Of a stretch of DNA of 64,000 bases, positions 3,001-64,000 are shown piece by piece. Origin of the DNA: an uncultured Chitinophagaceae bacterium (lineage in GTDB: Bacteria > Bacteroidota > Bacteroidia > Chitinophagales > CAIOSU01); assembly GCA_964543705.1 (NCBI GenBank), contig CAZIZP010000005.1:1612-65611 (forward strand), given 5' to 3'. How positions within the stretch are numbered: position 1 is the first letter of the stretch; each line of letters begins with the position of its first letter. Made by a program: the position numbers and the translations under genes. Under the pieces are notes generated by a model, which made no database searches, was not told the DNA's origin, and saw only the letters and a list, made by a program, of their open reading frames with translations.

Positions 3001-5168
3001 GTAACTTCAGAATAGGCATTTTAGAAATTGACAATAGCAACGGGGTACAATTTGCATTTAATACAAATGCACTTATAGATGAAAAATTAGTATTAAAAAC
3101 TGGTAATTTAAACACCAATAATGGAACTGTTACACTGAAGTCGTCTGCTACCCGCACAGCCTATATTGACGATTTCACTTCAGGATATAACGGTACTATT
3201 ACCACCAACAACAACTTAACCATAGAGCGATATATACCGGTAGTAGCCAACCCGCTTTCGGCAACACCCTTTGCGTACTTGAATCGCTATTTTTATATTG
3301 GCTCTATTACTAACAATATTACTACAGCTTCTAAATGGAATGGGCAATTTAGCTTAAATGCTAATGCTGGCGCCAACAACAGCAATACTGTTACTCCAAA
3401 AACTGATTGCAGCAGAGAAGCGTTGGCACAAGGCAGTCCATTCAGTAACTTATTTGCTTATGATGAAAGCAGAGTACAAGGTGATTGCTACTTAAGAGGG
3501 TGGATACCATTAAATGCTTCTGCTACAATAGAAAGAGGCAAAGGCTATGCAGCACGTATTAACGACCCCGCAATTATTAACTCAAACAGATTATTAAGTG
3601 AAACCGGAAATTACAGTAAACTTCCTGTTACTTTCAACAATCTTAGTATAAGCGCCAATAATAATTCAGCATCATTATACTCCGGACAGTTTGGCACCAA
3701 AGGTCACCATATTATTTCCAACCCATTCTGGGCACCAATAGACTGGAGAGTTGTAGCCACTAATAATGCCTCCGTTTATGGTACTGCTTATAAGTTTAAC
3801 CCTGCAACAGGTAACTTTTTACCATTAAACAATTCAGGAGTAGTGCCTGTGGAAATTGGTACTAATGAAGCAATCATCATATTACCTTTAGATGCTAACC
3901 AAAGCAGCTATAATGTAACCATTCCTGCTACTGCAAGAGTAAACAGCACCAGCAATAGTTTACTTAGACAACAACAGCTTTATCAGTATAAGTTAGAAGT
4001 AAAAGTACAATCGGCAGATAATGAATCGGATAAGGCCTATTTAATATTTGACAATAGCTTTACTGAAACCCATGATAATGGTTTTGATGCTAAAAAAATG
4101 TTTAGCAGCATAGGCGTGCCAAGTATTTACACTAAAGATTTGAATAATGAAAGAAGCAGTATTTTGGCTTTGCCTGAAAATACCCAGCAAACCACTATTC
4201 CTTTAGGTGTAGCTATTGAATACAATGGTAATCATACCTTAACTTTTGAAGGCGTAGAAGATTTTCCGAATACTTCTATTATTTGGTTAGAAGATTTACA
4301 AACAGGAACCATACAGTATTTGAGAAATAATAATACGTATAGCTTCACTGCCAACAAAACAGATAATGCCGATAGGTTCTTATTACACTTTGCGCCTGAG
4401 TTGCTAATTGCTTCCACAGATGCAAACTGCGATAATGAAAACGGAAATATTAACATTACCGAAAGAGGTGGTTTGGAATGGACTTATACTTTAACCGATG
4501 AAAACAGCAATGTGATTACAAACAGCCTAATCAACGGCAGCCAACAAACTATTGGTCAGTTACCAAGTGGTACTTATACATTACAATTAACCAATACTAT
4601 CAGTGGTTATCAAACGGTTGAAGCCGTAACGATAAATCAGGTGGCAACAGTAACAGCCGCTATTAGCATACCAAACGCAACAGTTAATGTAGGCGATATG
4701 GTAACAGTTGATATTAGCAACACCACCGGAGCAACAAATACCAGTGTAGATATGGGCGATGGTACTGTTTACAACAACGAAAGCATCATAAACCACAGTT
4801 ATACTATCGGTGGTAATTATACCATTACAGTAAATGCCAATAACGATAACTGTGCCGATGCTGCAACGCTAAAAGTTGAAGTAATGGATATTGCTACAAG
4901 TATTGCCAATAATAATCAAGACCTTTCGATAGAAGTATATGCTAGCCAAAATAATTTATACATTACCCAACACTTGCAAGAAGGCTCAGTAGATACAAAA
5001 GTAGAAGTGTATAATATGTTGGGGCAAATAGTTGCTTCTGAAACTATTAATGCTCAATACCAGCAGGCATACAGCATTAGTATGAATGATATTGCTAAAG
5101 GCACTTATATAGCCCGCGTAATTGCCAATGGAAAAACTTCATCGAAGCGAATAATTATAAGCGAATAA
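3..5168 (+). CDS. Large secreted cell-surface protein, 5'-partial (Calx-beta-like segment, PKD-like domain, T9SS type-A C-terminal sorting domain)
   Basis: The frame of the listed 135..5168 ORF stays open back to base 3, so the gene starts upstream of the window. The extra N-terminal stretch TFPTTITILNGQTTGTLTFNIADDNVAESTETATFTISNPSAG reads like a Calx-beta repeat. A PKD-like segment is present (DMGDGTVYN...HSYTIGGNYTITV). The C-terminus VEVYNMLGQIV...GTYIARVIANGKTSSKRIIISE is a typical Por/T9SS tail. Confidence 0.75.
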   Translation, partial: TFPTTITILNGQTTGTLTFNIADDNVAESTETATFTISNPSAGIVLGTPLTRNLTITNNPLTYIELTALNVPATEDFAGMGSNGSAPTPTGFGIQDGNSTTIASAVTQQASSGTPTAGGAYNWGQSTTERALGLMFSSGYNNKSILAAVKNSTGGTGSIFEIKFNYEQYRRNSATQTFKLQYSTSLTTGWVDVPGGNFTNIASGGSLHNFTSLIASEYIDIQFTPAATVANNQVVYFRWILDGSTNSSGVGIDDVSIALVTVSCSTPTTQISNTNFSGVTQNAIDFNFTVGDGSNRVVYINSTNSFTAPTDGAALPSVNTTWANSGQQLIYNGSGNSASVSGLSAGTTYYFRVYEYNCTGSNTKFLNTTTTYNQATNIAASTASVVQAVSNSEANTISSLVNGTIVSNSNGVQVWRFRLYDGNGISNDADNMPTIYTGWTIRASADNTVPNWSTAIADRKFFLGTSTIPITGGGLTNPNNIPFPISSPFITVPDDGFVDVYMRITLANPLPVGSDGQKFGFSLVPADITVASSATSSQLGSFSATSNGTKNIIDVLATLKFIDAPTNVVINNNFTITVSAVDANGNIDQNQTGAITLSQFTGSGTFSGGSTQNLVGGSYTWTGLTYDEVGTFQVRAQGGAFAPVFATINATNDPFQLFDDFNRANNNIVGIPSSGGTTLWSETETGDGSRVRISNNRLILSNCNSDGSNSGNGFEQVAFDMTPKYETLFENANGTMNWKFNMRSTRSGPSGFSITNTYGIAAVLGCDEIDYQSTSADGYAVIIGNTGAPNPVKLIRFTNGLRSNSNITDVAVSSYTGETGYLSINVSYNPCNNEWSLWVRNDGSDFADPNAGSFGSAFTGVDNTHTSKDLKYSGFAFQHGASCSEIVSIDNFYIPNAGTLVAGTTVWTGALNNLWHVSDNWYCGVLPNSTINAVIPNVTNAPEVIDLNPGNVKDVIISNNAEITIFGELNVYGNFTNSGGIVTGEGTLSFKGSLPQSINGNFRIGILEIDNSNGVQFAFNTNALIDEKLVLKTGNLNTNNGTVTLKSSATRTAYIDDFTSGYNGTITTNNNLTIERYIPVVANPLSATPFAYLNRYFYIGSITNNITTASKWNGQFSLNANAGANNSNTVTPKTDCSREALAQGSPFSNLFAYDESRVQGDCYLRGWIPLNASATIERGKGYAARINDPAIINSNRLLSETGNYSKLPVTFNNLSISANNNSASLYSGQFGTKGHHIISNPFWAPIDWRVVATNNASVYGTAYKFNPATGNFLPLNNSGVVPVEIGTNEAIIILPLDANQSSYNVTIPATARVNSTSNSLLRQQQLYQYKLEVKVQSADNESDKAYLIFDNSFTETHDNGFDAKKMFSSIGVPSIYTKDLNNERSSILALPENTQQTTIPLGVAIEYNGNHTLTFEGVEDFPNTSIIWLEDLQTGTIQYLRNNNTYSFTANKTDNADRFLLHFAPELLIASTDANCDNENGNINITERGGLEWTYTLTDENSNVITNSLINGSQQTIGQLPSGTYTLQLTNTISGYQTVEAVTINQVATVTAAISIPNATVNVGDMVTVDISNTTGATNTSVDMGDGTVYNNESIINHSYTIGGNYTITVNANNDNCADAATLKVEVMDIATSIANNNQDLSIEVYASQNNLYITQHLQEGSVDTKVEVYNMLGQIVASETINAQYQQAYSISMNDIAKGTYIARVIANGKTSSKRIIISE

Positions 5169-5248: not shown

Positions 5249-6058
5249 ATGAGAACGGTTTTAAAATTTACAGGTTTCGCACTAATAGTTGTTTTATTAC
5301 TTAATATTCAAGCCTGTAAAAACAAAGAAGATAAAAGCCTTAATATTTTCAGAATACAAGACGATATTGCTTTAGGACAGGAATTAGAGGCGCATATTGC
5401 CGCTAACCCTCAGGAATTCCCTTTGCTTTCTGAAGCAGCACACCCACAAGCTTATGCTTATATTAGAGGATTAAGAGACTCAATTCTGTACGCAGGAAAG
5501 GTATTCTATAAAAATGAATTTGAGTGGAAAGTAAGAATTATTCAAGACGATGCAACTTTAAATGCTTTTTGTGCACCTGGCGGCTATATTTATGTTTATA
5601 CAGGACTTATAAAATATTTAGATTCTGAAGATGAGCTAATTGGTGTTTTGGGCCACGAAATGGCACATGCCGACAGAAGACATTCTACTGACCAGTTAAC
5701 CAAGCAATATGGGCTTTCTCTTTTAATTGGTATAGTTGCCGGCACTACCGGACAAGACCAATTGGCCCAAATTGCCGGAAGTCTTACTTCTCTTGCTTTT
5801 AGCAGAAGCGATGAAAAAGAAGCCGATGAATACTCAGTAAAATATTTGTGCCCTACCTCCTATAATGCTGCAGGTGCAGCCGGTTTCTTTGAAAAAATAG
5901 AAGCACAAGGCGGTTCTAATGTTCCGCAATTTTTAAGTACTCACCCTAATCCCGATAACAGAATTCAAAACATTTATGAAACTAAAACCAATGAAGGCTG
6001 TGGAGGTAATGAGAAGTATGACGTTCGTTATGAAGCTTTTAAGGCCAGCTTACCTTAG
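5249..6058 (+). CDS. M48-family zinc metallopeptidase, lipoprotein
   Basis: Signal peptide with lipobox LLNIQAC. HExxH zinc motif present (GHEMAHADRRH). Confidence 0.85.
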   Translation: MRTVLKFTGFALIVVLLLNIQACKNKEDKSLNIFRIQDDIALGQELEAHIAANPQEFPLLSEAAHPQAYAYIRGLRDSILYAGKVFYKNEFEWKVRIIQDDATLNAFCAPGGYIYVYTGLIKYLDSEDELIGVLGHEMAHADRRHSTDQLTKQYGLSLLIGIVAGTTGQDQLAQIAGSLTSLAFSRSDEKEADEYSVKYLCPTSYNAAGAAGFFEKIEAQGGSNVPQFLSTHPNPDNRIQNIYETKTNEGCGGNEKYDVRYEAFKASLP

Positions 6059-7413
6059 TACACTATAATTTCGTCTTTAGTTTTCTTTCCTAACCAGCTA
6101 CGAATTATTCTATGAATATCCGGGTCGTCAGGCTGCAATTGTACGGCTTCTTTTAATGATTCAATATCGTTTTCTATATACTCGGGCTCAAAGTAACCAT
6201 AGCCTTTGTATTCATAATTTTCTATCCACACTACCGATTGCTGGTGGTGCGATTTACCTTCGCTTATAATAAAGAAACTCGGGTTTTTATATCGGTAGCG
6301 GGCATTTACCTCTTTAAACTTCAAATTGTAAACCGATGCAGGCATTTCAGCAACAGTATTTTCTGCATTTCCAAACCCACACAACGATGGATACAACCCG
6401 TATTTATCAATTAGTTTGCGCATTACAATATTGGCACTTTTTCTATTGGTAAACTCTATCAAAGGCTTTTCGCCTTGCTTTAGCGGTTCAATTTTTAAAT
6501 TGAAAAATCCATTTTCATCAGCAAAATGGTAAATACCATATCGATATTTTTGTGTTCGTAAAGAAGCATTGTAAGGTGGAAGGTACTTTCTTAGCTCGTT
6601 GGCTTCCATAATCGTAGCAATTAACTCGCTTCCGGTTAATTCATAACTTATATCATAAATTTTGTTTTTCATTTCAGCAAATCTTACGCTTTCTGAGCTA
6701 CTGCTGAAGTGACTAATAACTTTTTTACGAATGTTTTTTGATTTACCAATATATAATGGCTTACCTTTTTCGTCTAAGAAATAATAAATCCCTACTTCTT
6801 CGGGCAAATCATCTATAAGTTCTTTTGAAAGTTTTGGTGGCGCAGCAACATCATTCAACTCTTCTTCCAGCATAGTTCTAATAGACTCTTTCTTGTCGTT
6901 CAGAAGAATTTTTTCAAACAATAAAGCAGTGGCTTCAGCATCGCCTAAGGCGCGGTGGCGATTATCTACCGGAATGCCCATTTCCCTGCAAAGCTTACCT
7001 AAACTATAACTTTTATATCCAGGAAGAATTTGTCTTGCCAACTTAACTGTGCAAAGTTGCTTGCGATTAAAGCGCATACCTATACGCTTAAATTCGTTAC
7101 GCAGCACACCATAATCGAAGCGGGCATTATGTGCTACGAATATGGCATTTTCAGTAAGTTCATTTATTTCTTTTGCTATTTCAGGAAAAGTAGGGGCATC
7201 TTTCAGCATATCGTTATTAATGCCTGTAAGCGATACCACAAAAGGCATTATTGGTGCTTCAGGATTTATTAACGAGCTATACTGTTTTACAATTTTTTTG
7301 CCGTTATGAACTATAATAGCAATTTCCATCACCCTGTCTTTAGAAGGGTTTCCTCCGGTTGTTTCCGTATCAATAATGGCAAATAGCTGTTCCTTTTCCC
7401 CCAGTCCGTTCAC
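6055..7413 (-). CDS. DEDDh 3'-5' exonuclease (DnaQ/epsilon-like) fused to a GIY-YIG nuclease domain
   Basis: N-terminal exonuclease motifs: FAIIDTETTG, VAHNARFDYGVL, HRALGDAEATA. These are followed by a GIY-YIG-like segment, GIYYFLDEKGKPLYIGKSKNIRKKV. Confidence 0.8.
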   Translation of the reverse strand: MNGLGEKEQLFAIIDTETTGGNPSKDRVMEIAIIVHNGKKIVKQYSSLINPEAPIMPFVVSLTGINNDMLKDAPTFPEIAKEINELTENAIFVAHNARFDYGVLRNEFKRIGMRFNRKQLCTVKLARQILPGYKSYSLGKLCREMGIPVDNRHRALGDAEATALLFEKILLNDKKESIRTMLEEELNDVAAPPKLSKELIDDLPEEVGIYYFLDEKGKPLYIGKSKNIRKKVISHFSSSSESVRFAEMKNKIYDISYELTGSELIATIMEANELRKYLPPYNASLRTQKYRYGIYHFADENGFFNLKIEPLKQGEKPLIEFTNRKSANIVMRKLIDKYGLYPSLCGFGNAENTVAEMPASVYNLKFKEVNARYRYKNPSFFIISEGKSHHQQSVVWIENYEYKGYGYFEPEYIENDIESLKEAVQLQPDDPDIHRIIRSWLGKKTKDEIIVY

Positions 7414-8386: not shown

Positions 8387-9448
8387 ATGAAAATGATATT
8401 CTTTATTCTGAAAATAGTTTTAGGCATTGCGCTACTATTTGGATTATATGTGGGCGGAAATATTTTATACGCCACACTTACTGATTATAAGCCCCCACTT
8501 CAGGAAACTTTGCAGGTAGAGAATGCTCAAAATTTACAAGCAACCGATTCGGTTTTTTCATTTTTAATATGGAATATTGGTTATGGTGGTTTAGGTGCAA
8601 AAGACGATTTTTTTTACGATGGCGGCAAAACAGTAGTATCTCCTGAAAAGCATGTAGAAGAATATCTTGAAGGCATAAAAAACTTTTTAAAACAACATGC
8701 TGACAAAGATTTTATTATGCTGCAGGAAGTAGATAAAAAAGCAAAACGAAGTTATGGTAATAATGAGCTAAAGCTCATTGCTGAAATATTACCTAACCAC
8801 TCTTATGTTTATGCACCAAATTATGTGGTAGATTTTATTCCTATTCCTTACACTAACCCACTTGGCAGGGTTAATGCAGGCTTGGGAAGCTACAGTAAAT
8901 TTCAGCTTACAGAAGCTACGCGCTATCAGTTGCCCGGAAGTTTTCCGTGGCCTAAAAGCGTTTATTTTTTAGATCGCTGCATTTTAGTAAAGCGCACATC
9001 GCTTTCAAACGGAAAAGATTTAATTGTAGTTAATATTCACAATTCGGCCTATGACGATACAGGCGAATTGAAAGCTGCTGAAATGGCTTTCATAAAAGAC
9101 TATCTGCTAAAAGAATTTGAAAAAGGAAACTTTATTGTAGTAGGTGGCGACTGGAACCAAACACCAACTGATTTTGAAAAGAATACTTACCGAAAATCGG
9201 GCGATGATTATGCCCCTGAGAACATTGCCAAAGATTTAATGCCTGCCGGCTGGTGGTGGATATATGATGGCACATCGCCAACCAACAGAAACTTAAAAGC
9301 TGCTTACAATCCCGAAACTACTTCATGCACCGTAATAGACTTTTATTTGGTTTCTCCTAATATAGAAGTACTGGAAGTAAAAACACATAATCTGAACTTT
9401 GCTTATTCAGACCATCAACCGGTGTCAATGAAAATTAAATTGAGGTAA
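8387..9448 (+). CDS. Endonuclease/exonuclease/phosphatase (EEP) family protein with N-terminal membrane anchor
   Basis: N-terminal hydrophobic helix. Motifs LQEVD, VVNIHN and GDWNQ, plus a C-terminal SDHQPV typical of the EEP fold. Confidence 0.75.
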   Translation: MKMIFFILKIVLGIALLFGLYVGGNILYATLTDYKPPLQETLQVENAQNLQATDSVFSFLIWNIGYGGLGAKDDFFYDGGKTVVSPEKHVEEYLEGIKNFLKQHADKDFIMLQEVDKKAKRSYGNNELKLIAEILPNHSYVYAPNYVVDFIPIPYTNPLGRVNAGLGSYSKFQLTEATRYQLPGSFPWPKSVYFLDRCILVKRTSLSNGKDLIVVNIHNSAYDDTGELKAAEMAFIKDYLLKEFEKGNFIVVGGDWNQTPTDFEKNTYRKSGDDYAPENIAKDLMPAGWWWIYDGTSPTNRNLKAAYNPETTSCTVIDFYLVSPNIEVLEVKTHNLNFAYSDHQPVSMKIKLR

Positions 9449-45502: not shown

Positions 45503-48500
45503 TTATTCCACTACAATTCTTCTTGTGAAGGTATTGCTTTCGGTTTTTACTTGAATCATGTAAACACCGGTTGAAATGTTGGCTGGTAAATTTACTAATG
45601 CTGAAGTTGTATTATGATTAGCATTTGCCAATTCAGCACCTGCTAAATCATATACTACTGTGTTTATAATGTTTTCATTTGCAGTTACTGAAACCGCATT
45701 TGAATTAACCGGATTAGGATAAATGCTTATAGCATTATTCAACACTAAATCAGTAGTATTCACTTGTACACAAGCAGGCAATGCTACTAGCGCGCCACCT
45801 GTAGGCAATGCAGCGAATAATCCAAACGCTTCACCATTGCTGTTGTTAGCAGGGTTTAAGAAACCTGATGCCAAAACGATTAAAGCATTTCCGTCTTGAT
45901 TTAATGAAGCAAGAGGAGCCTGATAGCAAGCTACAGTTGTAGTACCTGTTTCGTCTCTAACTTGTACTTCGTAATCATTCGTAGGCAATTCCAAATAGCC
46001 TTCAAATTCTCCGTAGCTCAAATCATTTACAATAGTGCCGGCACCTACTAATGTTTCTACAACATCTACTGTAGGCGCATCTGTTGCACCATGAAACACT
46101 AACACATCTGTATTGCCTGATGAAGCAGCAGCTTCTTGTGCAGGATTGAATACATATAAATCAAATGGTGTGGCTGGGCTGTAGCCTGTTGGGCTTACAA
46201 TACCGTTGGCAACGATTACGTATGTTTCATTTCTGTCTAATGTGTAATTGAAATTAGCAATGGCATCAGCAACTGAAGTACTGTTGGCTGGAGCTATTGA
46301 TACTTTATTATTAACGTCTGAATTCAAATCTATGAATGGTGTAGCCGTTCTGAATGCGAAATTGTCTATTTCTAATACATCATTAATATAAACATCAACC
46401 TCAGCAGCAGCAGCATCAGCACTGTTATGAATAACCTGTACTCTTGCTGTTGAATTTGGTAATGGTACTAATGCACCACCTGTAGGCAATGCAGCAAACA
46501 AACCAAAAGCAGGGCCATCGCTGTTGTTAGCAGGGTTTAAAAAACCTGAAGCTAACACTACTGCAGCAGCATCTTGTAAGCCTAATGTGGCTAATGGTGC
46601 TTCATATGCAGCTACAGTTACTGAACCTGTTTCGTCTTGCACCTGTAAAGCATAATCAGCAGTTGCTAATGGTAAATAACCTGCAAACGCTCCATAGCTT
46701 AAATCATCTACAACTGTACCTGCTCCAGCTTCAACTTCAGCTACATCTACTGTAGGCGCATCTGTTGCACCATGAAACACTAACACATCTGTATTGCCTG
46801 ATGAAGCAGCAGCTTCTTGTGCAGGATTGAATACATATAAATCAAATGGTGTGGCTGGGCTGTAGCCTGTTGGGCTTACAATACCGTTGGCAACGATTAC
46901 GTATGTTTCATTTCTGTCTAATGTGTAATTGAAATTAGCAATGGCATCAGCAACTGAAGTACTGTTGGCTGGAGCTATTGATACTTTATTATTAACGTCT
47001 GAATTCAAATCTATGAATGGTGTAGCCGTTCTGAATGCGAAATTGTCTATTTCTAATACATCATTAATATAAACATCAACCTCAGCAGCAGCAGCATCAG
47101 CACTGTTATGAATAACCTGTACTCTTGCTGTTGAATTTGGTAATGGTACTAATGCACCACCTGTAGGTAATGCTACAAATAAACCAAAAGCAGGACCATC
47201 GCTGTTGTTAGCAGGGTTTAAAAAACCTGAAGCTAACACTACACCTGCACCACCTTGTAAACCTAGAGAAGCCAAAGGAGCTTCATAAGCAGCTACCACA
47301 ACAGTACCGGTTTCATCTCTTACTTGCAATGCATAATCAGCATTAATTAAAGGCAGGTATCCCTGAAATTCTCCGTAAGATATGTCATCAACAACTGTAC
47401 CTGCGCCTGCTGCAACCTCAACTGCATCTACAGTTGGTGCATCAGTTGCGCCATGAAACACTAACAAATCTGTATTTGCTGTTCCGCCAGCGGCAGCTTC
47501 TCTACCGGTTGTGTAAACATATAAATCAAATGGTGTAGCAGGGCTATAACCTGAAGGACTTACTATACCATTGGCAACAATAATGTAAGTTTCTTCATCA
47601 GCTAATACATAATCAAATGTTGCAATAGCGTCACCTACGCTTGTACTGGTTGAAGGAGCAATAGCCACTTCAATATCGATTAAAGATGGTAAATCAGTAA
47701 AAGCAGAAGCTGTTCTGAAAGCAAAATCGTCAAACACCAATGTGCCATTAATATATACATCTACTTCAGCAGCAGCAGCATCGGCACTGTTATGAATAAC
47801 TTGTACTCTCGCAGCACCATTTGTTGCAGCTACAGACGGCAACTCTAACAATGCACCACCTGTTGGCAACGCAGCATACAGACCAAAAGCTGGTCCGTTA
47901 CTATTATTAGCCGGGTTTAAGAACCCTGAAGCCACAACAACTAATGCCGCCCCTCCGGCATTTAATGTAGCCAAAGGCGCACTGTAAGAAGCTACTGTGG
48001 CCAATGTGTTTTCAGTTCTTACATCTAAAGTAAAATCTGCAGTTGGTAAATCTAAGTAAGTTGTAAACTCGTTGTATGATAAATCATCAATAATTAGTCC
48101 TGCACCCACGCCACGCTCTACAACATCTACAGTTGGAGCATCAGTTGCGCCATGAAAAACCAAAACTGCTGTTTCATTAATATTGTTAGAAGTTTCTCTT
48201 CCAAGAGCATACACATATATATCGAAAGGAGAAGCAGGTGTGTATCCCGAACCACTTACAATACCATTAGCGATAGCTACATATGTTTCACCGTCAGCAA
48301 GTGTTACTGTTTTATTGAAAACAGAAGATGATAACGAAGTGTTTGGCGGAGTTAAATCAATTGTTAGTGGCACTCCTGAAGGCACATCTGTAAATGCAGT
48401 TGCCGTTCTGAAAGCGACATCTTCCAAAAATAAGTTTCCGTTAACGTAAACGTCAACCGTTGCTGCTGCGGCATCTGCAGAGTTGTGAATAATCTGCAAC

Positions 48501-48568
48501 CTTGCCGTTTGCGCAAAAGCACTCAACCCAATAAAGACTGAGACCGCAAGTGTTAGAATTTTTTTCAT
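45503..48568 (-). CDS. DUF4397-repeat surface protein with T9SS C-terminal domain
   Basis: Signal peptide ending AFAQ. Four modules of about 227 aa, each starting AR(L/V)Q(I/V)IHNSADAAAA.VDVY(V/I)N. C-terminus IYPNPVNSNAV...GVYMIQVKTESNTFTRRIVVE. Confidence 0.8.
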   Translation of the reverse strand: MKKILTLAVSVFIGLSAFAQTARLQIIHNSADAAAATVDVYVNGNLFLEDVAFRTATAFTDVPSGVPLTIDLTPPNTSLSSSVFNKTVTLADGETYVAIANGIVSGSGYTPASPFDIYVYALGRETSNNINETAVLVFHGATDAPTVDVVERGVGAGLIIDDLSYNEFTTYLDLPTADFTLDVRTENTLATVASYSAPLATLNAGGAALVVVASGFLNPANNSNGPAFGLYAALPTGGALLELPSVAATNGAARVQVIHNSADAAAAEVDVYINGTLVFDDFAFRTASAFTDLPSLIDIEVAIAPSTSTSVGDAIATFDYVLADEETYIIVANGIVSPSGYSPATPFDLYVYTTGREAAAGGTANTDLLVFHGATDAPTVDAVEVAAGAGTVVDDISYGEFQGYLPLINADYALQVRDETGTVVVAAYEAPLASLGLQGGAGVVLASGFLNPANNSDGPAFGLFVALPTGGALVPLPNSTARVQVIHNSADAAAAEVDVYINDVLEIDNFAFRTATPFIDLNSDVNNKVSIAPANSTSVADAIANFNYTLDRNETYVIVANGIVSPTGYSPATPFDLYVFNPAQEAAASSGNTDVLVFHGATDAPTVDVAEVEAGAGTVVDDLSYGAFAGYLPLATADYALQVQDETGSVTVAAYEAPLATLGLQDAAAVVLASGFLNPANNSDGPAFGLFAALPTGGALVPLPNSTARVQVIHNSADAAAAEVDVYINDVLEIDNFAFRTATPFIDLNSDVNNKVSIAPANSTSVADAIANFNYTLDRNETYVIVANGIVSPTGYSPATPFDLYVFNPAQEAAASSGNTDVLVFHGATDAPTVDVVETLVGAGTIVNDLSYGEFEGYLELPTNDYEVQVRDETGTTTVACYQAPLASLNQDGNALIVLASGFLNPANNSNGEAFGLFAALPTGGALVALPACVQVNTTDLVLNNAISIYPNPVNSNAVSVTANENIINTVVYDLAGAELANANHNTTSALVNLPANISTGVYMIQVKTESNTFTRRIVVE
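46062..47167. repeat. Intragenic tandem duplication: two 425-bp perfectly identical cores, 681 bp apart
   Basis: 46062-46486 is identical base for base to 46743-47167. The flanks continue at roughly 90% identity for about another 75 bp. Confidence 0.9.
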
Positions 48569-60719: not shown

Positions 60720-61316
60720 ATGAAAACATTAACATTAGAAGGAACCCTAAGAAAAGAATTAGGTAAAAAAAACACCGGTGATTTAAGAAGAAATGGCTTT
60801 GTGCCTTGTAACCTTTATGGCGGTAAAACGAATGTAAACTTTTATGCGCCCTATAACTCGTTTTTAAAGCTAGTTTACAATCCTGATTTTTTTAAAGTAA
60901 ATGTAACCATAGATGGTAAAACCTATGAAACATTAATTAAAGAAATACAATTTAACCCTGTTACAGACAGAATTAGTCACATTGATTTTTTAGAACTTAC
61001 TCCAGGCAAAAAAGTTATTGCTGAAGTGCCATTAAATTTAGTTGGACAATCTGAAGGCGTTAAAGCAGGTGGTAAGCTAATTCAAAAAATGAGAAAACTA
61101 AAAATTAAAGCGACTCCTGAAAACCTAAAGGATGCCGTTGAGGTTAGCATTGAAACTTTAGGGTTAGGTAAGTCTATTTATGTTAGAGATATAAAAGAAG
61201 AAGGCTTGGAAATTATCAACTCTCCTGAAATCCCAGTGGCTTCAATAGAAATTACAAGATCTCTTAGAAGTGCTGAAGCTGAAGCTAAAAAGGCTGAAGG
61301 CACTAAGAAAAAGTAA
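60720..61316 (+). CDS. rplY: 50S ribosomal protein L25 / general stress protein Ctc
   Basis: Motifs LRRNGFVPCNLYG and HIDFLEL, with a Lys/Ala/Glu-rich tail. The position after prs is conserved. Confidence 0.9.
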   Translation: MKTLTLEGTLRKELGKKNTGDLRRNGFVPCNLYGGKTNVNFYAPYNSFLKLVYNPDFFKVNVTIDGKTYETLIKEIQFNPVTDRISHIDFLELTPGKKVIAEVPLNLVGQSEGVKAGGKLIQKMRKLKIKATPENLKDAVEVSIETLGLGKSIYVRDIKEEGLEIINSPEIPVASIEITRSLRSAEAEAKKAEGTKKK

Positions 61317-61452
61317 TTTTTTTCTTTCAAATAATAAAATAAATGCCATAGTCAGTGTGGAAATGTTACAAAATATCACCTGCCAATAAAAAAGTAAAAT
61401 AAGGATGCAGATTTTATTAGGTTTAAGTAAAATAAAAACTGAAAGAAACATG

Positions 61453-61487
61453 AAAGAGGCTGACTCAAAAAGGGTAGCCTCTTTTTT
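61453..61487 (+). terminator. Rho-independent terminator
   Basis: AAAGAGGCT-gactcaaaaagggt-AGCCTCTTTtttg, 137 nt after the rplY stop. Confidence 0.55.
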
Positions 61488-61608
61488 GTAATATTGTTGT
61501 TTATGAAGTCTCATTGTAGTTGATAAATATTATCAATTTTTTGGCTACACTAATCTGTCGAGTTAGCTGTGAGCAATAGAAAGTTTTTAAATAGGTTTTG
61601 CTTTCTTT

Positions 61609-62045
61609 TTAGGCTGCTTTTTTCATGAGGTTATGGGCAATGGCAATAAATCCGAGCTCAATACTTACTTTTTCTTTTCCTCCAAGAATATATCTCCTAA
61701 AGCCTTTGTCTTGTTTGATGTTGCCGAAGACGGCTTCTACATCCTGTGGTCGTTGTTTTCGGTGAGATATGCCTTATGGCTTGTTAAGTTTTTCCAAGCC
61801 TTTTGTTTGGGTTAATTGAGTCGATGATTGACTTTTATTACCCGATTTCTTTTTGCTTTGTGACAAACGACCCGAAACGGACAGCCATTGCAGTTTTGTG
61901 CCTGATAACGGGTGATGGTCTGCTTAAAGCCGTTATCGTTTTTCTTGGTATAGCTACCGATGTTTTTCATCTGCTGTCCCATCGGGCGGACGTAAACCTT
62001 TTTGCGACAAAGCCGACCATTGGAAAAATATTTATTGAGCCACAT
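61609..62045 (-). pseudogene. IS1182-type transposase remnant (C-terminal ~145 codons; in-frame stop plus frameshift, N-terminus missing)
   Basis: Minus-strand translation gives ...YVRPMGQQM...YQAQNCNGCPFRVVCHKAKRNRVIKVNHRLN*, then PKQKAWKNLTSHKA. After a frame change it gives ISHRKQRPQDVEAVFGNIKQDKGFRRYILGGKEKVSIELGFIAIAHNLMKKAA*. This is a C-terminal pattern I recognise from IS1182/IS5-superfamily DDE transposases. Confidence 0.7.
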
Positions 62046-62165
62046 TTAAAAACACGTTTAAATTTAACTTCGGACAAAATTAGATTTCACGGTTGTCAAG
62101 CAGTTAGGCATGACGACCGACCACATTCACGTTCAACTAAAATGACAGACAAAAGGGCTAGACAT

Positions 62166-62277
62166 AACAGCAGTAACTGTTGCACAACTACCATTTAAGA
62201 GATAAAAGTGCAAAAAACGGCTTCATTAAAAGCGTTTTTAGCGAAGCTGCAATACAAAGTAATTTTTTGGGTTGGGG
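62166..62277. repeat. 112-bp direct repeat, copy A (left flank of the Fic cassette)
   Basis: Aligns without gaps to 63153-63264, with 7 mismatches counted by eye (about 94% identity). Confidence 0.85.
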
Positions 62278-62294
62278 TTTTGGGGTGGCTTACA

Positions 62295-62314
62295 AATAGA
62301 TTTTACAATCTATT
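62295..62314 (-). terminator. Hairpin immediately downstream of fic (weak terminator candidate)
   Basis: AATAGATT-ttac-AATCTATT, a perfect 8-bp stem 4 nt after the Fic stop. There is no clear T-run, hence the low confidence. Confidence 0.3.
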
Positions 62315-62317
62315 GTA

Positions 62318-63112
62318 TCATTTTATAGAGTCTTTAAGTGCTTCGGGCAGCATCAACAAAAACGGCAAACATCTATCCCAATAAAGGGCATAATAATTAT
62401 ATCCCAATGCAATGTTTTGATAATAATCAGGACGATTATCCCAATAATATTTTTCAGAATTTATAGACCAAGCCGACAAACCAAGCTTAGACACCAAAAA
62501 CCATTTTTCAAGCAAACGTGCAGACCTTCCATTACCATCCATAAATGGGTGAATTTTTGCAGTCAATAAATGAATCATAGAAGCATAATAAAAAACCTCT
62601 TTGTAAGACAAATCCCGTTTCAATAATTCTGAAATATCAGCAAACAACTTGCTTAATTCTTCATTCACAAATTGTGGCTCCACTGCTAAATAAACAGGTT
62701 TAAGCGTTTTTGAATCGTGAACGCCAACTTGTTGCTTTCTTACTTTTCCTCGTAAATTGGCAGGCAATAAAGTTTTAGCTGAAATTTCGTGAGTTTTTAA
62801 GAAATTAGTTTTGTTCAGGTTGTTTTCAGAGGCAAACTTGTATGCTTTTACTAAATCTTCAATCTCTTGCACTTCTTTTTTCTTTGGAAAACTTTTATTT
62901 CCTCTGTTTCTAAAAAAGCTGTTTGCATCAAGAGTGTTACCCTCAATTTTAGACGAGTATAGCGAAGAAGCTATCAAATAACATTCAAAATCATCAGTTG
63001 TAAATATTGACTTTGACCTTAATTTATGGAATACCTCTAACCAGTCAATTTTGCACTTTAACGAGTATTTATCAAGATATTCGGGTGATATAAATTTCAA
63101 GTGTTTTCCCAT
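62318..63112 (-). CDS. Fic-family protein (AMPylase), class II with N-terminal inhibitory motif
   Basis: Active-site motif HPFMDGNGRSARLL fits HxFx(D/E)GNGRxxR. SSKIEGN matches the (S/T)xxxE(G/N) inhibitory helix upstream of the core. Confidence 0.9.
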   Translation of the reverse strand: MGKHLKFISPEYLDKYSLKCKIDWLEVFHKLRSKSIFTTDDFECYLIASSLYSSKIEGNTLDANSFFRNRGNKSFPKKKEVQEIEDLVKAYKFASENNLNKTNFLKTHEISAKTLLPANLRGKVRKQQVGVHDSKTLKPVYLAVEPQFVNEELSKLFADISELLKRDLSYKEVFYYASMIHLLTAKIHPFMDGNGRSARLLEKWFLVSKLGLSAWSINSEKYYWDNRPDYYQNIALGYNYYALYWDRCLPFLLMLPEALKDSIK

Positions 63113-63116
63113 AAGA

Positions 63117-63124
63117 CAAATTTA
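63117..63124 (-). promoter_or_regulatory. Candidate -7 box (TAnnTTTG) for fic
   Basis: Minus strand reads TAAATTTG, only 4 nt upstream of the ATG at 63112 (a leaderless geometry). It lies in the cassette-specific 40 bp, not in the repeat. Confidence 0.4.
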
Positions 63125-63152
63125 CTATTATTAAATGCATATAACTACCGCC

Positions 63153-63264
63153 AACAGCAGTAACCCTTGCACCACTACCCTTTAAAAGATAAAAGTGCAA
63201 AAAACGGCTTCATTAAAAGCGTTTTAAGCGTAGCTGCAATACAAAGTAATTTTTTGGGTTGGGG
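63153..63264. repeat. 112-bp direct repeat, copy B (right flank of the Fic cassette, upstream of radA)
   Basis: See copy A. The offset between copies is 987 bp. Confidence 0.85.
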
Positions 63265-63339
63265 CACATTAAAAAGCCAATGGCATGCGGGCCCAATTTT
63301 TTCTGAAAAATAAAATGTACTATTGATTACCTTTGGTTT

Positions 63340-64000
63340 GTGGCAAAAACTAAAACCGTATATATCTGTCAAAGCTGTGGCTATCAGTCGCCCAAGTGGG
63401 CAGGCAGGTGCTCTTCGTGTGGCGAGTGGAACACTTTTGTAGAAGAGGTAGTGAGCAAAACAGCCGAAACGGCAAAGCCTGCTAAAAACATTTATGGCGA
63501 AGACCTGGCAGCACCACAATTAATTAACGAGGTGCAATTACAGCAGTCGTTTAGAATAATTACCAAAGATGCTGAACTGAACAGGGTATTGGGTGGCGGC
63601 ATAGTGCCCGGCTCGTTAATACTTATTGGTGGCGAGCCCGGCATTGGCAAATCCACTTTAATGCTGCAACTGGCGTTAAGTTTCGACAATGTAAAAGTGT
63701 TGTATGTAAGTGGCGAAGAAAGCGCCCAGCAAATAAGCATGCGTGCCCAGCGTATTGGCACTAAAAATTCAGCCTGTTATATTATTGCCGAAACCGCTAC
63801 CGACCGGTTATTAAACCAGCTGAAAGAACTAAAACCCGCAGTAGTAATCATAGATTCTATACAAACATTGCAAACCCCTTTTTTAGAATCTACACCCGGC
63901 AGCATTTCGCAAATACGCGAGTGTGCTTCAGAATTGCAACGCTATGCCAAAGAAACCGGTACACCGGTGTTTATTGTGGGGCATATAACCAAAGATGGCA
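63340..64000 (+). CDS. radA: DNA repair protein RadA, 3'-partial (absent from the supplied ORF track because it runs off the window)
   Basis: GTG start, then AKTKTVYICQSCGYQSPKWAGRCSSCGEWNTF (zinc ribbon) and Walker A GGEPGIGKSTLMLQ. The frame is open to base 64000. Confidence 0.9.
   Translation, partial: MAKTKTVYICQSCGYQSPKWAGRCSSCGEWNTFVEEVVSKTAETAKPAKNIYGEDLAAPQLINEVQLQQSFRIITKDAELNRVLGGGIVPGSLILIGGEPGIGKSTLMLQLALSFDNVKVLYVSGEESAQQISMRAQRIGTKNSACYIIAETATDRLLNQLKELKPAVVIIDSIQTLQTPFLESTPGSISQIRECASELQRYAKETGTPVFIVGHITKDG

Follow-up and report, generated by a model that had tools for sequence, protein, structure and literature searches.

The fic gene at 62318-63112 of a 64,000-nt stretch of contig CAZIZP010000005.1 (assembly GCA_964543705.1, positions 1,612 to 65,611; hereafter the window), from an uncultured Chitinophagaceae bacterium, lies between two imperfect direct repeats of 112 nt upstream of radA. 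A preliminary description, made from the sequence without database searches, read this arrangement as a self-contained single-gene cassette bounded by recombination sites. The repeats are instead two transposase-less ends of an IS1182-family insertion sequence (IS), situated at the landing motifs of their clade and more probably left there by two insertions of short derivatives and a later deletion; we put the probability of this reading as a whole at roughly 0.6. The fic gene would then be bracketed because it lies between two landing sites of one IS clade, and not because att sites make it a cassette. An accessory gene amid unremarkable remains of mobile elements is what the locus amounts to, although the direct copies could in principle recombine, releasing fic as a 987-bp circle.

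Both repeats are outer ends of an IS1182-family IS, pointing in the same direction and drawn from the part of the element downstream of the transposase stop codon. Each starts at the terminus GTAAC, runs through the terminal inverted repeat (IR) TGTTGCACAACT and a hairpin, and ends 105 nt in; each is preceded by AACAGCA. The clade lands in a site- and orientation-specific manner at ...aCt.C.g.TAACAnnG/GTAAC (the slash marks the point of insertion), with a duplication of 6 bp. Copy B sits at the motif that forms the upstream boundary of fic, and copy A at a second motif, 62147-62172. We infer that both copies are short non-autonomous derivatives placed by two transposase-mediated insertions, and that a subsequent deletion connected copy A with the truncated 3' side of fic. 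The two-insertion route is favoured because canonical insertion junctions are present at both outer sides and because the clade yields transposase-less derivatives.

Identity of the repeats

The repeat pair reported in the preliminary description was recovered by a repeat search of the 64-kb window and by alignment: the two 112-nt copies are offset by 987 nt, align without gaps and differ at 7 of 112 positions (94% identity). Fully identical blocks of 38 nt and 32 nt each occur twice in the window, against an expectation of 0 from 100 shuffles, and the copy number of the 112-nt repeat in the window is 2.

62166-62277, + strand: repeat copy A; AACAGCA motif (62166-62172, 7 nt) and IS1182-family terminus (62173-62277, 105 nt), the latter with the terminal IR GTAACTGTTGCACAACT and the hairpin AAAAACG..CGTTTTT
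63153-63264, + strand: repeat copy B; 7 nt of motif and IS1182-family terminus (63160-63264, 105 nt), with the IR decayed to GTAACCCTTGCACCACT
62278-62294: 17-nt spacer between copy A and the cut fic unit, TTTTGGGGTGGCTTACA; absent from copy B and from the related locus L005

The GTAAC of the IS terminus stands at 62173 in copy A and at 63160 in copy B. The IR of copy A is GTAACTGTTGCACAACT, the same as at the end of an IS from Myroides, and that of copy B carries 3 changes relative to it. At 5 of the 7 positions that distinguish the copies, all five in or near the IR, the family consensus base is found in A and not in B, so that copy B is the more decayed of the two.

A BLAST search of window positions 62046-62300 against 72,556 plasmids (7.3 Gb) returned a single match, on Myroides albus plasmid pMA84474 (NZ_CP102755.1; E 5e-3), located 85 nt past the stop of a transposase gene annotated as IS1182 family. 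The IS in question is delimited to the base by the empty site present in plasmids of Bacteroides, Riemerella and Salmonella; it is 1712 bp long, begins with GTAACTGTTGCACAACT, ends with AGTTGTGCAACAAGC and is accompanied by the 6-bp duplication ACATCG. The pairwise alignment of copy A with the Myroides IS end takes in about 100 nt, beginning at the terminus and including the IR and the hairpin. The sub-terminal layout matches that of the family (an A/T-rich stretch, a hairpin, then the transposase stop), and the alignment to the Myroides end and to a profile of the family reaches through AAAAACGGCTTCATTAAAAGCGTTTTT.

Searching with a degenerate IR pattern uncovered at least 120 metagenome loci with related ends. 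Among the ends with at least 450 nt of inward sequence, 24 of 61 lead into an IS1182 transposase gene and 37 of 61 do not; two-ended derivatives without a full-length transposase gene were found in metagenomes at lengths of 189, 327, 354, 470 and 650 nt. A profile built from 20 transposase-linked ends has exactly two matches in the window, 62173-62248 (E 1.3e-12) and 63160-63233 (E 8.3e-8), both beginning at model position 1. The first 24 nt of this profile match are circular, the loci having been retrieved with a pattern derived from the window, and this counts against our interpretation; the remainder of the profile match and the Myroides match are independent of that pattern. On these similarities, each 112-nt repeat is 7 nt of insertion motif followed by the outermost 105 nt of an IS1182-family IS.

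The repeats belong to a large dispersed repeat family of Bacteroidota, linked to gene boundaries through its target specificity. This comes close to what the preliminary description had set against its own reading, a high-copy dispersed repeat with no tie to gene boundaries: the family has at least 120 loci in Bacteroidota, and departs from that picture in that its members do associate with gene boundaries. The description was right that the repeat is too long and too divergent for a target-site duplication, that of the clade being 6 bp. Folding of the repeat, which it had suggested as a check, gave no convincing structure on either strand (z -1.1, +1.1, -2.4 and -1.3; three of the four strands fold no better than shuffles). 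A consensus promoter and terminator scan of the region stayed at chance level, and Rfam had no match in the repeat region. An exact 27-mer and an exact 25-mer of the repeat had no match in the species-genome and metagenome collections, which contain neither the source genome nor close relatives of it. Literature on IS1182 target specificity, IS1182 miniature inverted-repeat transposable elements (MITEs), Bacteroidota integrons and the Myroides plasmid yielded nothing on this element.

Insertion motif and target element

The sequences that precede the IS ends are themselves conserved. All 114 distinct left flanks share AAAAA..aCt.C.g.TAACA..G/GTAAC, and the motif is on the same side in all 114. 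Complete IS copies have, in addition, a conserved right flank and a perfect 6-bp duplication, which is ACAAGG in loci L053, L122 and L137. Judging by these flanks, the clade inserts at one position and in one orientation within a conserved target element, with a 6-bp duplication. A position weight matrix (PWM) built from the 114 flanks was used to score the window:

62147-62172, + strand: insertion motif at copy A, left half of the target element; AGACAAAAGGGCTAGACATAACAGCA; PWM score 14.9
63134-63159, + strand: insertion motif at copy B, the conserved 5' boundary of the fic module; AATGCATATAACTACCGCCAACAGCA; PWM score 13.9

Among some 128,000 window positions on both strands, the flank of copy A ranks 5th and that of copy B 8th, and the fit to the motif at both junctions extends beyond the 7 nt that the repeats share. 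The motif is also found, free of any IS, upstream of fic in other genomes, with scores of 21.8 in L033 (rank 1 of 21540), 13.6 in L030, 11.3 in L005 and 7.7 in L035; in L033 and L034 the whole unoccupied target element is present there (nhmmer E 4e-3 in L033 and 5e-4 in L034). The position of copy B is accounted for, to the base, by the specificity of the IS clade. The 7 shared flank bases are likewise explained by the motif (TAACAGCA) and not by a duplicated radA leader. The preliminary description had taken copy B to be part of the native radA leader; it is IS-derived sequence, ending 78 nt upstream of radA.

The target element, here called T, is a conserved unannotated intergenic element of about 90-150 nt, with the core ..TAAC-AnnGG-TTTGGCAAAATGGCGGG.TAAGTGCT.. 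followed by repeated units containing GTGCT. The GTAAC-TGTTGCAC clade of IS1182 inserts there. Unoccupied copies of T precede blaOXA-347, blaMYO-1, aadS and tet(X2) on plasmids of Myroides and Bacteroides, in addition to those upstream of fic; Rfam had no match among the target elements. In metagenomic contigs, T also takes part in arrays, in which direct repeats composed of a 189-nt two-ended IS1182 derivative and about 85 nt of target element separate single genes or gene pairs. Among the products of the array genes are a small transmembrane protein, a GLPGLI-family protein, an HNH-like protein and an EcoRI-type methylase with GmrSD/HNH; all the array genes follow the orientation of the repeat.

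L036 64-145, 6624-6683 and 7599-7655; L037 336-418; L033 and L034 about 4921-4983: target element T
L139 1526-6146; L113 whole; L069 223-1575; L143 about 1-1100: repeat arrays

T may conceivably be more than a place of insertion and serve as a boundary, or as a site of recombination, in a system by which Bacteroidota exchange genes like cassettes, with copy A, fic and copy B as a two-site instance excisable as a 987-bp circle. We regard this as a long shot. It fits the movement of the left half of T with fic into unrelated genomes, the unoccupied copies between resistance genes on plasmids, and the metagenomic arrays in which T and IS-derived repeats stand between single accessory or defence genes. 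Integrases make up 3 of the 104 open reading frames (ORFs) near related loci, with no enrichment.

The fic module

The only real gene within the 875 nt between the copies is fic, as the preliminary description stated. Its features, and those of a small ORF that accompanies it in relatives, are as follows.

62318-63112, - strand: fic; 264-aa class II Fic-domain protein (Pfam Fic PF02661, E 2.3e-12, 48 bits, cutoff 24)
63117-63124, - strand: TAAATTTG box of the Bacteroidota -7 type, 4 nt before the fic ATG; kept in seven other contexts
62295-62321, - strand: remnant of the small ORF, about 9 codons with an internal TAG; includes the hairpin of the preliminary description
L005 6792-6992; L033 about 5813-5947; L034 about 5822-5950: small ORF 3' of fic

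The translation carries HPFMDGNGRSARLL and SSKIEGN, both noted in the preliminary description along with the box of TAnnTTTG type. The Fic core motif HxFx(D/E)GNGRxxR is represented by HPFMDGNGRSAR, and the inhibitory (S/T)xxxE(G/N) motif lies N-terminal to it in the same chain as SSKIEGN, at residues 63-69 or thereabouts. By its motifs the protein is an ordinary class II Fic, with AMP transfer as its putative activity. It matches the structures of SoFic and FICD (HYPE) distantly, with weak but significant sequence matches, and shares with them the core motif and the N-terminal SxxxEG inhibitory motif within one chain; it differs from them in its shortness (264 aa), in the lack of extra domains and in that its relatives pair with a small ORF with two transmembrane segments.

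The protein collection contains 3089 homologues. Identity ranges from 69 to 96% among the best 120, which belong to Sphingobacteriales, Cytophagales, Bacteroidales and unclassified Bacteroidota. Plasmids and phages gave no close relatives, all matches there being at or below 29% identity. Seven other genomic contexts of fic are mutually unrelated: near AAA and PLD genes, within a CRISPR array, near helicase and nuclease genes, after a gene for a T9SS-tailed protein, between the FTCD and ceramidase genes, after an MBOAT gene, and beside another Fic gene. DNA similarity to the 95%-identical copy in GCA_964578885.1 covers window positions 62295-63158 only, that is, the segment between the repeats, and ends abruptly. 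The 5' boundary of the module, about 45 nt upstream of the ATG, is kept in 8 of 8 contexts as (GCTGTTR)GCGGYAGTTATAC..TAAATTTG, and the 3' boundary is not conserved. Direct repeats flanking fic are absent from six of the seven other contexts, and the seventh has just the repeats of the CRISPR array. This shows that in other genomes the fic module is independent of the repeats; the gene is of class II, stands alone and is widespread in unrelated contexts.

A small ORF comes directly after fic in L005, L033 and L034, its ATG overlapping the fic stop codon (ATGA), with tblastn E-values from 2e-9 to 8e-38. The ORF of L005 encodes 66 aa and is hydrophobic, and this Fic subfamily may have a partner in such an ORF. 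L035 has a decayed version; in the window the ORF is cut off, homology to L005 ending at 62295. Since homology stops at that position and the small ORF keeps only about 9 codons, the fic unit is a fragment cut at its 3' end and not a self-contained cassette. What was described as a self-contained single-gene module is therefore a gene-sized accessory module, recognisable by homology over 62295-63158 and by its unrelated contexts, with its 3' side truncated at 62295. The hairpin after the fic stop, which had been taken for a terminator, corresponds to the first 9 or so codons of the ORF that overlaps the fic stop in relatives.

Two of the other fic copies have repeats of their own in the vicinity. 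In L006 (GCA_964392775.1, CAYMRD010000001.1), a 92%-identical fic at 5626-6876 sits inside a CRISPR array of 47-nt repeats with a period of 77, between two repeats 1202 nt apart, as a gene-sized insertion within a spacer or replacing one; cas2 and cas1 are located about 2 kb downstream. Beside the fic copy of L010 (GCA_963852035.1), a 59-nt direct repeat (6812-6870 and 8735-8792, 96.6% identical) encloses one gene of 373 aa made of 66-nt tandem repeats, and an IS1182-end-like sequence, GTAACCGTTGCACAACT, is found at 8948-8965 on the - strand.

The repeats, or the occupied target element, could in principle act as attL/attR-like, attC-like or Xer-like sites, with a recombinase encoded elsewhere moving fic. 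A single promoter-bearing gene between direct repeats of about 100 nt has the look of such a cassette, as do the gene-sized fic module with its conserved boundary in the middle of the target element, the similar repeats that separate single genes in the arrays of L139, L113 and L069, and the unoccupied target elements between resistance genes on the Myroides plasmid. Integron cassettes and clusters of attC sites lacking integron-integrases (CALIN) present the same picture of one toxin-type gene with its own promoter between similar direct repeats of about 100 nt and no integrase nearby. The repeats, however, have the boundary of IS termini, unambiguously set by an empty site and a 6-bp duplication: what was read as attL/attR-like sites is the terminal 105 nt of an IS1182-family element plus 7 nt of motif. 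There is no dyad symmetry between the repeat ends, and on three of four strands the folds do not surpass shuffles. In contrast to attC sites, the ends AACAGCAGTAAC and GGGTTGGGG are not complementary (no R''-L''...L'-R' arrangement), and the hairpins are local, with z-scores of -2.4 to +1.1; the attC covariance model was not applied in this comparison. In line with the preliminary description, a scan of 20 window ORFs (220-452 aa) brought up neither a Phage_integrase domain nor intI, the Logan annotation of the 50-61 kb stretch contains no integrase either, and the integrases near related loci remain at the 3 of 104 ORFs given above. Together with the occurrence of fic without flanking repeats in six other contexts and with CRISPR repeats only in the seventh, this makes a site-specific cassette very improbable.

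Routes to the bracket and surroundings

Several observations weigh against two insertions followed by a deletion. No cognate transposase follows either copy A or copy B. The transposase remnant of the window, considered as the parent of the repeats, was rejected at 29% identity over 62 aa to the transposases of the GTAAC-TGTTGCAC clade, which leaves no cognate transposase in view. A second inverted repeat was not found at the inner ends of the copies (62260-62295 and 63250-63270), where a profile of opposite ends re-finds the known IRs only. The candidate TTTGGGTTGGGGCAC matches the left-IR (IRL) consensus by eye at 11 of 15 positions, which is not significant, and the profile gives it no support. 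A matching 6-bp duplication is present neither after 62277 nor after 63264, the left side being ACAGCA in both copies. The right half of T seemed visible after copy B, and a hidden Markov model of ten right halves finds none after either copy. None of the two-ended derivatives observed elsewhere is shorter than 189 nt, against the 105-nt units of the window, and the inner end that both copies share fits a defined unit and copying of one from the other equally well.

Comparison with complete elements brings out the same features. IS1182-family ISs of Bacteroidota, exemplified by the 1712-bp copy of pMA84474, share with the window copies the terminal IR, the succession of IR, A/T-rich stretch and hairpin, and the outer TAACAnnG motif; the window copies differ in being 105 nt long and in lacking a transposase, a recognisable second end and a matching 6-bp duplication. 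MITEs and internally deleted ISs are likewise short, transposase-less and placed at the target of the parent family, and L045 has a solo relative upstream of a housekeeping gene. A MITE would, however, be expected to have two inverted ends and a target duplication. Without a second IR, a right half of the target or a 6-bp duplication at the window copies, a complete mini-element of this kind is not demonstrated. Between the 17-nt spacer TTTTGGGGTGGCTTACA and the tail of that L045 element, the resemblance stays at the level of shuffles.

The same IS ends could have been brought together by homologous, Campbell-type capture, the second option of the preliminary description. A circle of about 987 bp, made of the fic fragment and an IS end, would have integrated by a single crossover at a resident solo IS end upstream of radA, so that the bracket would stem from one recombination event. 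A single crossover classically leaves its insert between direct repeats, and the inner stop common to both copies would need no coincidence, one truncated partner being sufficient. The closure joint of the circle would lie where fic is cut on its 3' side, 17 nt from copy A; the shared inner boundary and the 17 nt of 62278-62294 are thereby explained with no further assumptions. The 6% divergence suits IS copies of different lineages, and both outer junctions would be genuine insertion junctions, one of the donor and one of the resident. The required circle, on the other hand, is unexplained: it would combine 122 nt of IS end with 860 nt of non-IS DNA and corresponds to no known IS intermediate. 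The empty site, the circle junction and the donor arrangement are all absent from the data reached, and 112 nt at 94% identity is a poor substrate for RecA-dependent recombination. We consider this course unlikely, while giving it serious weight.

The bracket bears resemblance to IS-flanked passenger segments, such as pseudo-compound transposons and IS26-type translocatable units, where a passenger gene likewise lies between direct IS sequences and recombination would yield a one-copy circle. The window retains 105-nt ends only, hence no transposase-driven movement of a unit from them, and IS1182 elements are not known to form such units.

Copying within the locus would dispense with a second insertion altogether. 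One IS end, already cut to 105 nt, would have been duplicated by segmental duplication or gene conversion during rearrangements, and the 7 shared flank bases would either have been copied along with it or mark a joint formed at microhomology. The identical boundaries of the two copies suit this course, as does the scarred state of the region, with its truncated transposase, cut fic unit and leftover stretches; the fic module of L005 and L033 natively begins with the GCTGTT of the outer boundary, which might thus have served as a microhomology joint. The junction of copy B, however, falls exactly at the insertion point of the clade as set by a motif that other genomes have upstream of fic, which would be a coincidence for a random joint, and the 7 differences, 5 of them in or near the IR of copy B, imply an old event. 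Local copying is accordingly quite improbable.

Independent sequences come from Logan contigs of the same organism in three runs of one project (SRR14492199, SRR14492200 and SRR14492177). The contigs with rplY or fic are identical to the window, and all break inside the repeats. Those carrying an identical RplY protein (L002-L004) run 37 nt into copy A, and over these 37 nt the side of the IS remnant matches A at 100% and B at 86% identity. The fic contig breaks 64 nt into copy B, which it matches at 100% identity throughout those 64 nt. Each left junction is confirmed and is linked to its own repeat variant, and two distinct repeat copies therefore exist. The k=31 Logan contigs are equally compatible with the linear join and with a circle plus an empty site, and to that extent accommodate capture too.

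The assembly derives from a metagenome, and the assembler might have threaded the fic unit between two repeat copies; the Logan contigs, which all break inside the repeat, are the only independent sequences. The tie of each left flank to its own variant speaks against such an artefact, since it calls for two distinct copies, and reads longer than about 150 nt span a 112-nt repeat. A circle with an empty site would, moreover, be a recombination partner of the same structure and not an artefact. An assembly error is hardly credible.

Two insertions at landing motifs of the clade, followed by a deletion, remain our preferred account. The surroundings of the bracket comprise the following features.

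60720-61316, + strand: rplY (ribosomal protein L25/Ctc; Pfam Ribosomal_L25p and Ribosomal_TL5_C), the last housekeeping gene on the left
61609-62045 (about), - strand: IS1182-family transposase remnant, the C-terminal 145 or so codons (a third), with a frameshift and stops
63343-64000, + strand: 5' part of radA, running past the window end (Pfam Zn_ribbon_LapB, AAA_25 and KaiC/DnaB_C; homologues named DNA repair protein RadA)

The decayed IS1182-type transposase that the preliminary description placed left of copy A is matched by Pfam DDE_Tnp_1_6 over 61812-62045 (E 1.1e-9), and its three-frame translation reads ...FGNIKQDKGFRRYILGGKEKVSIELGFIAIAHNLMKKAA, with breaks, up to a stop. It sits on the wrong side of copy A to serve as the cognate gene and, by its sequence, is separate debris of another IS1182 lineage. 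The preliminary description also spoke of an rplY/pth side; no pth follows rplY here, and the rplY-radA interval (61317-63342) consists of IS debris, the fic fragment and the unassigned stretches 62046-62146 and 62278-62294. This suggests that the two housekeeping blocks were themselves brought together by a rearrangement, of which their junction is the scar. The nearest relative of rplY in the species collection, at 47% identity, is from Larkinella, and a search with the N-terminus of RadA gave at most 64% identity among the matches listed.

Two further observations concern other parts of the window. A strong hairpin followed by a T-run (AAAGAGGCT..AGCCTCTTTTTT) is found at 61452-61486, 136 nt past the rplY stop; the decayed GTAAT..TGTTG directly after it may mark where the neighbouring IS remnant ends. 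At 45777-48516, four tandem copies of a unit of about 681 nt (65-100% identical) lie within an ORF of 1021 aa (45503-48568, - strand), which encodes a repetitive-domain protein.

For the locus itself the result is deflationary: a long, imperfect, att-like repeat around a toxin-type gene amounts to debris of IS ends, which advises caution in scans for cassettes. Beyond the locus, a large IS1182 clade of Bacteroidota inserts at a conserved motif, always in the same orientation and with duplication of 6 bp, and spawns shorter derivatives without a full-length transposase gene. The target of this clade is a conserved unannotated intergenic element that is also present between antibiotic-resistance genes and at the boundary of a widely spread fic gene. 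If this element is in truth more than a landing pad, it would bear on the shuffling of accessory and resistance genes in Bacteroidota.

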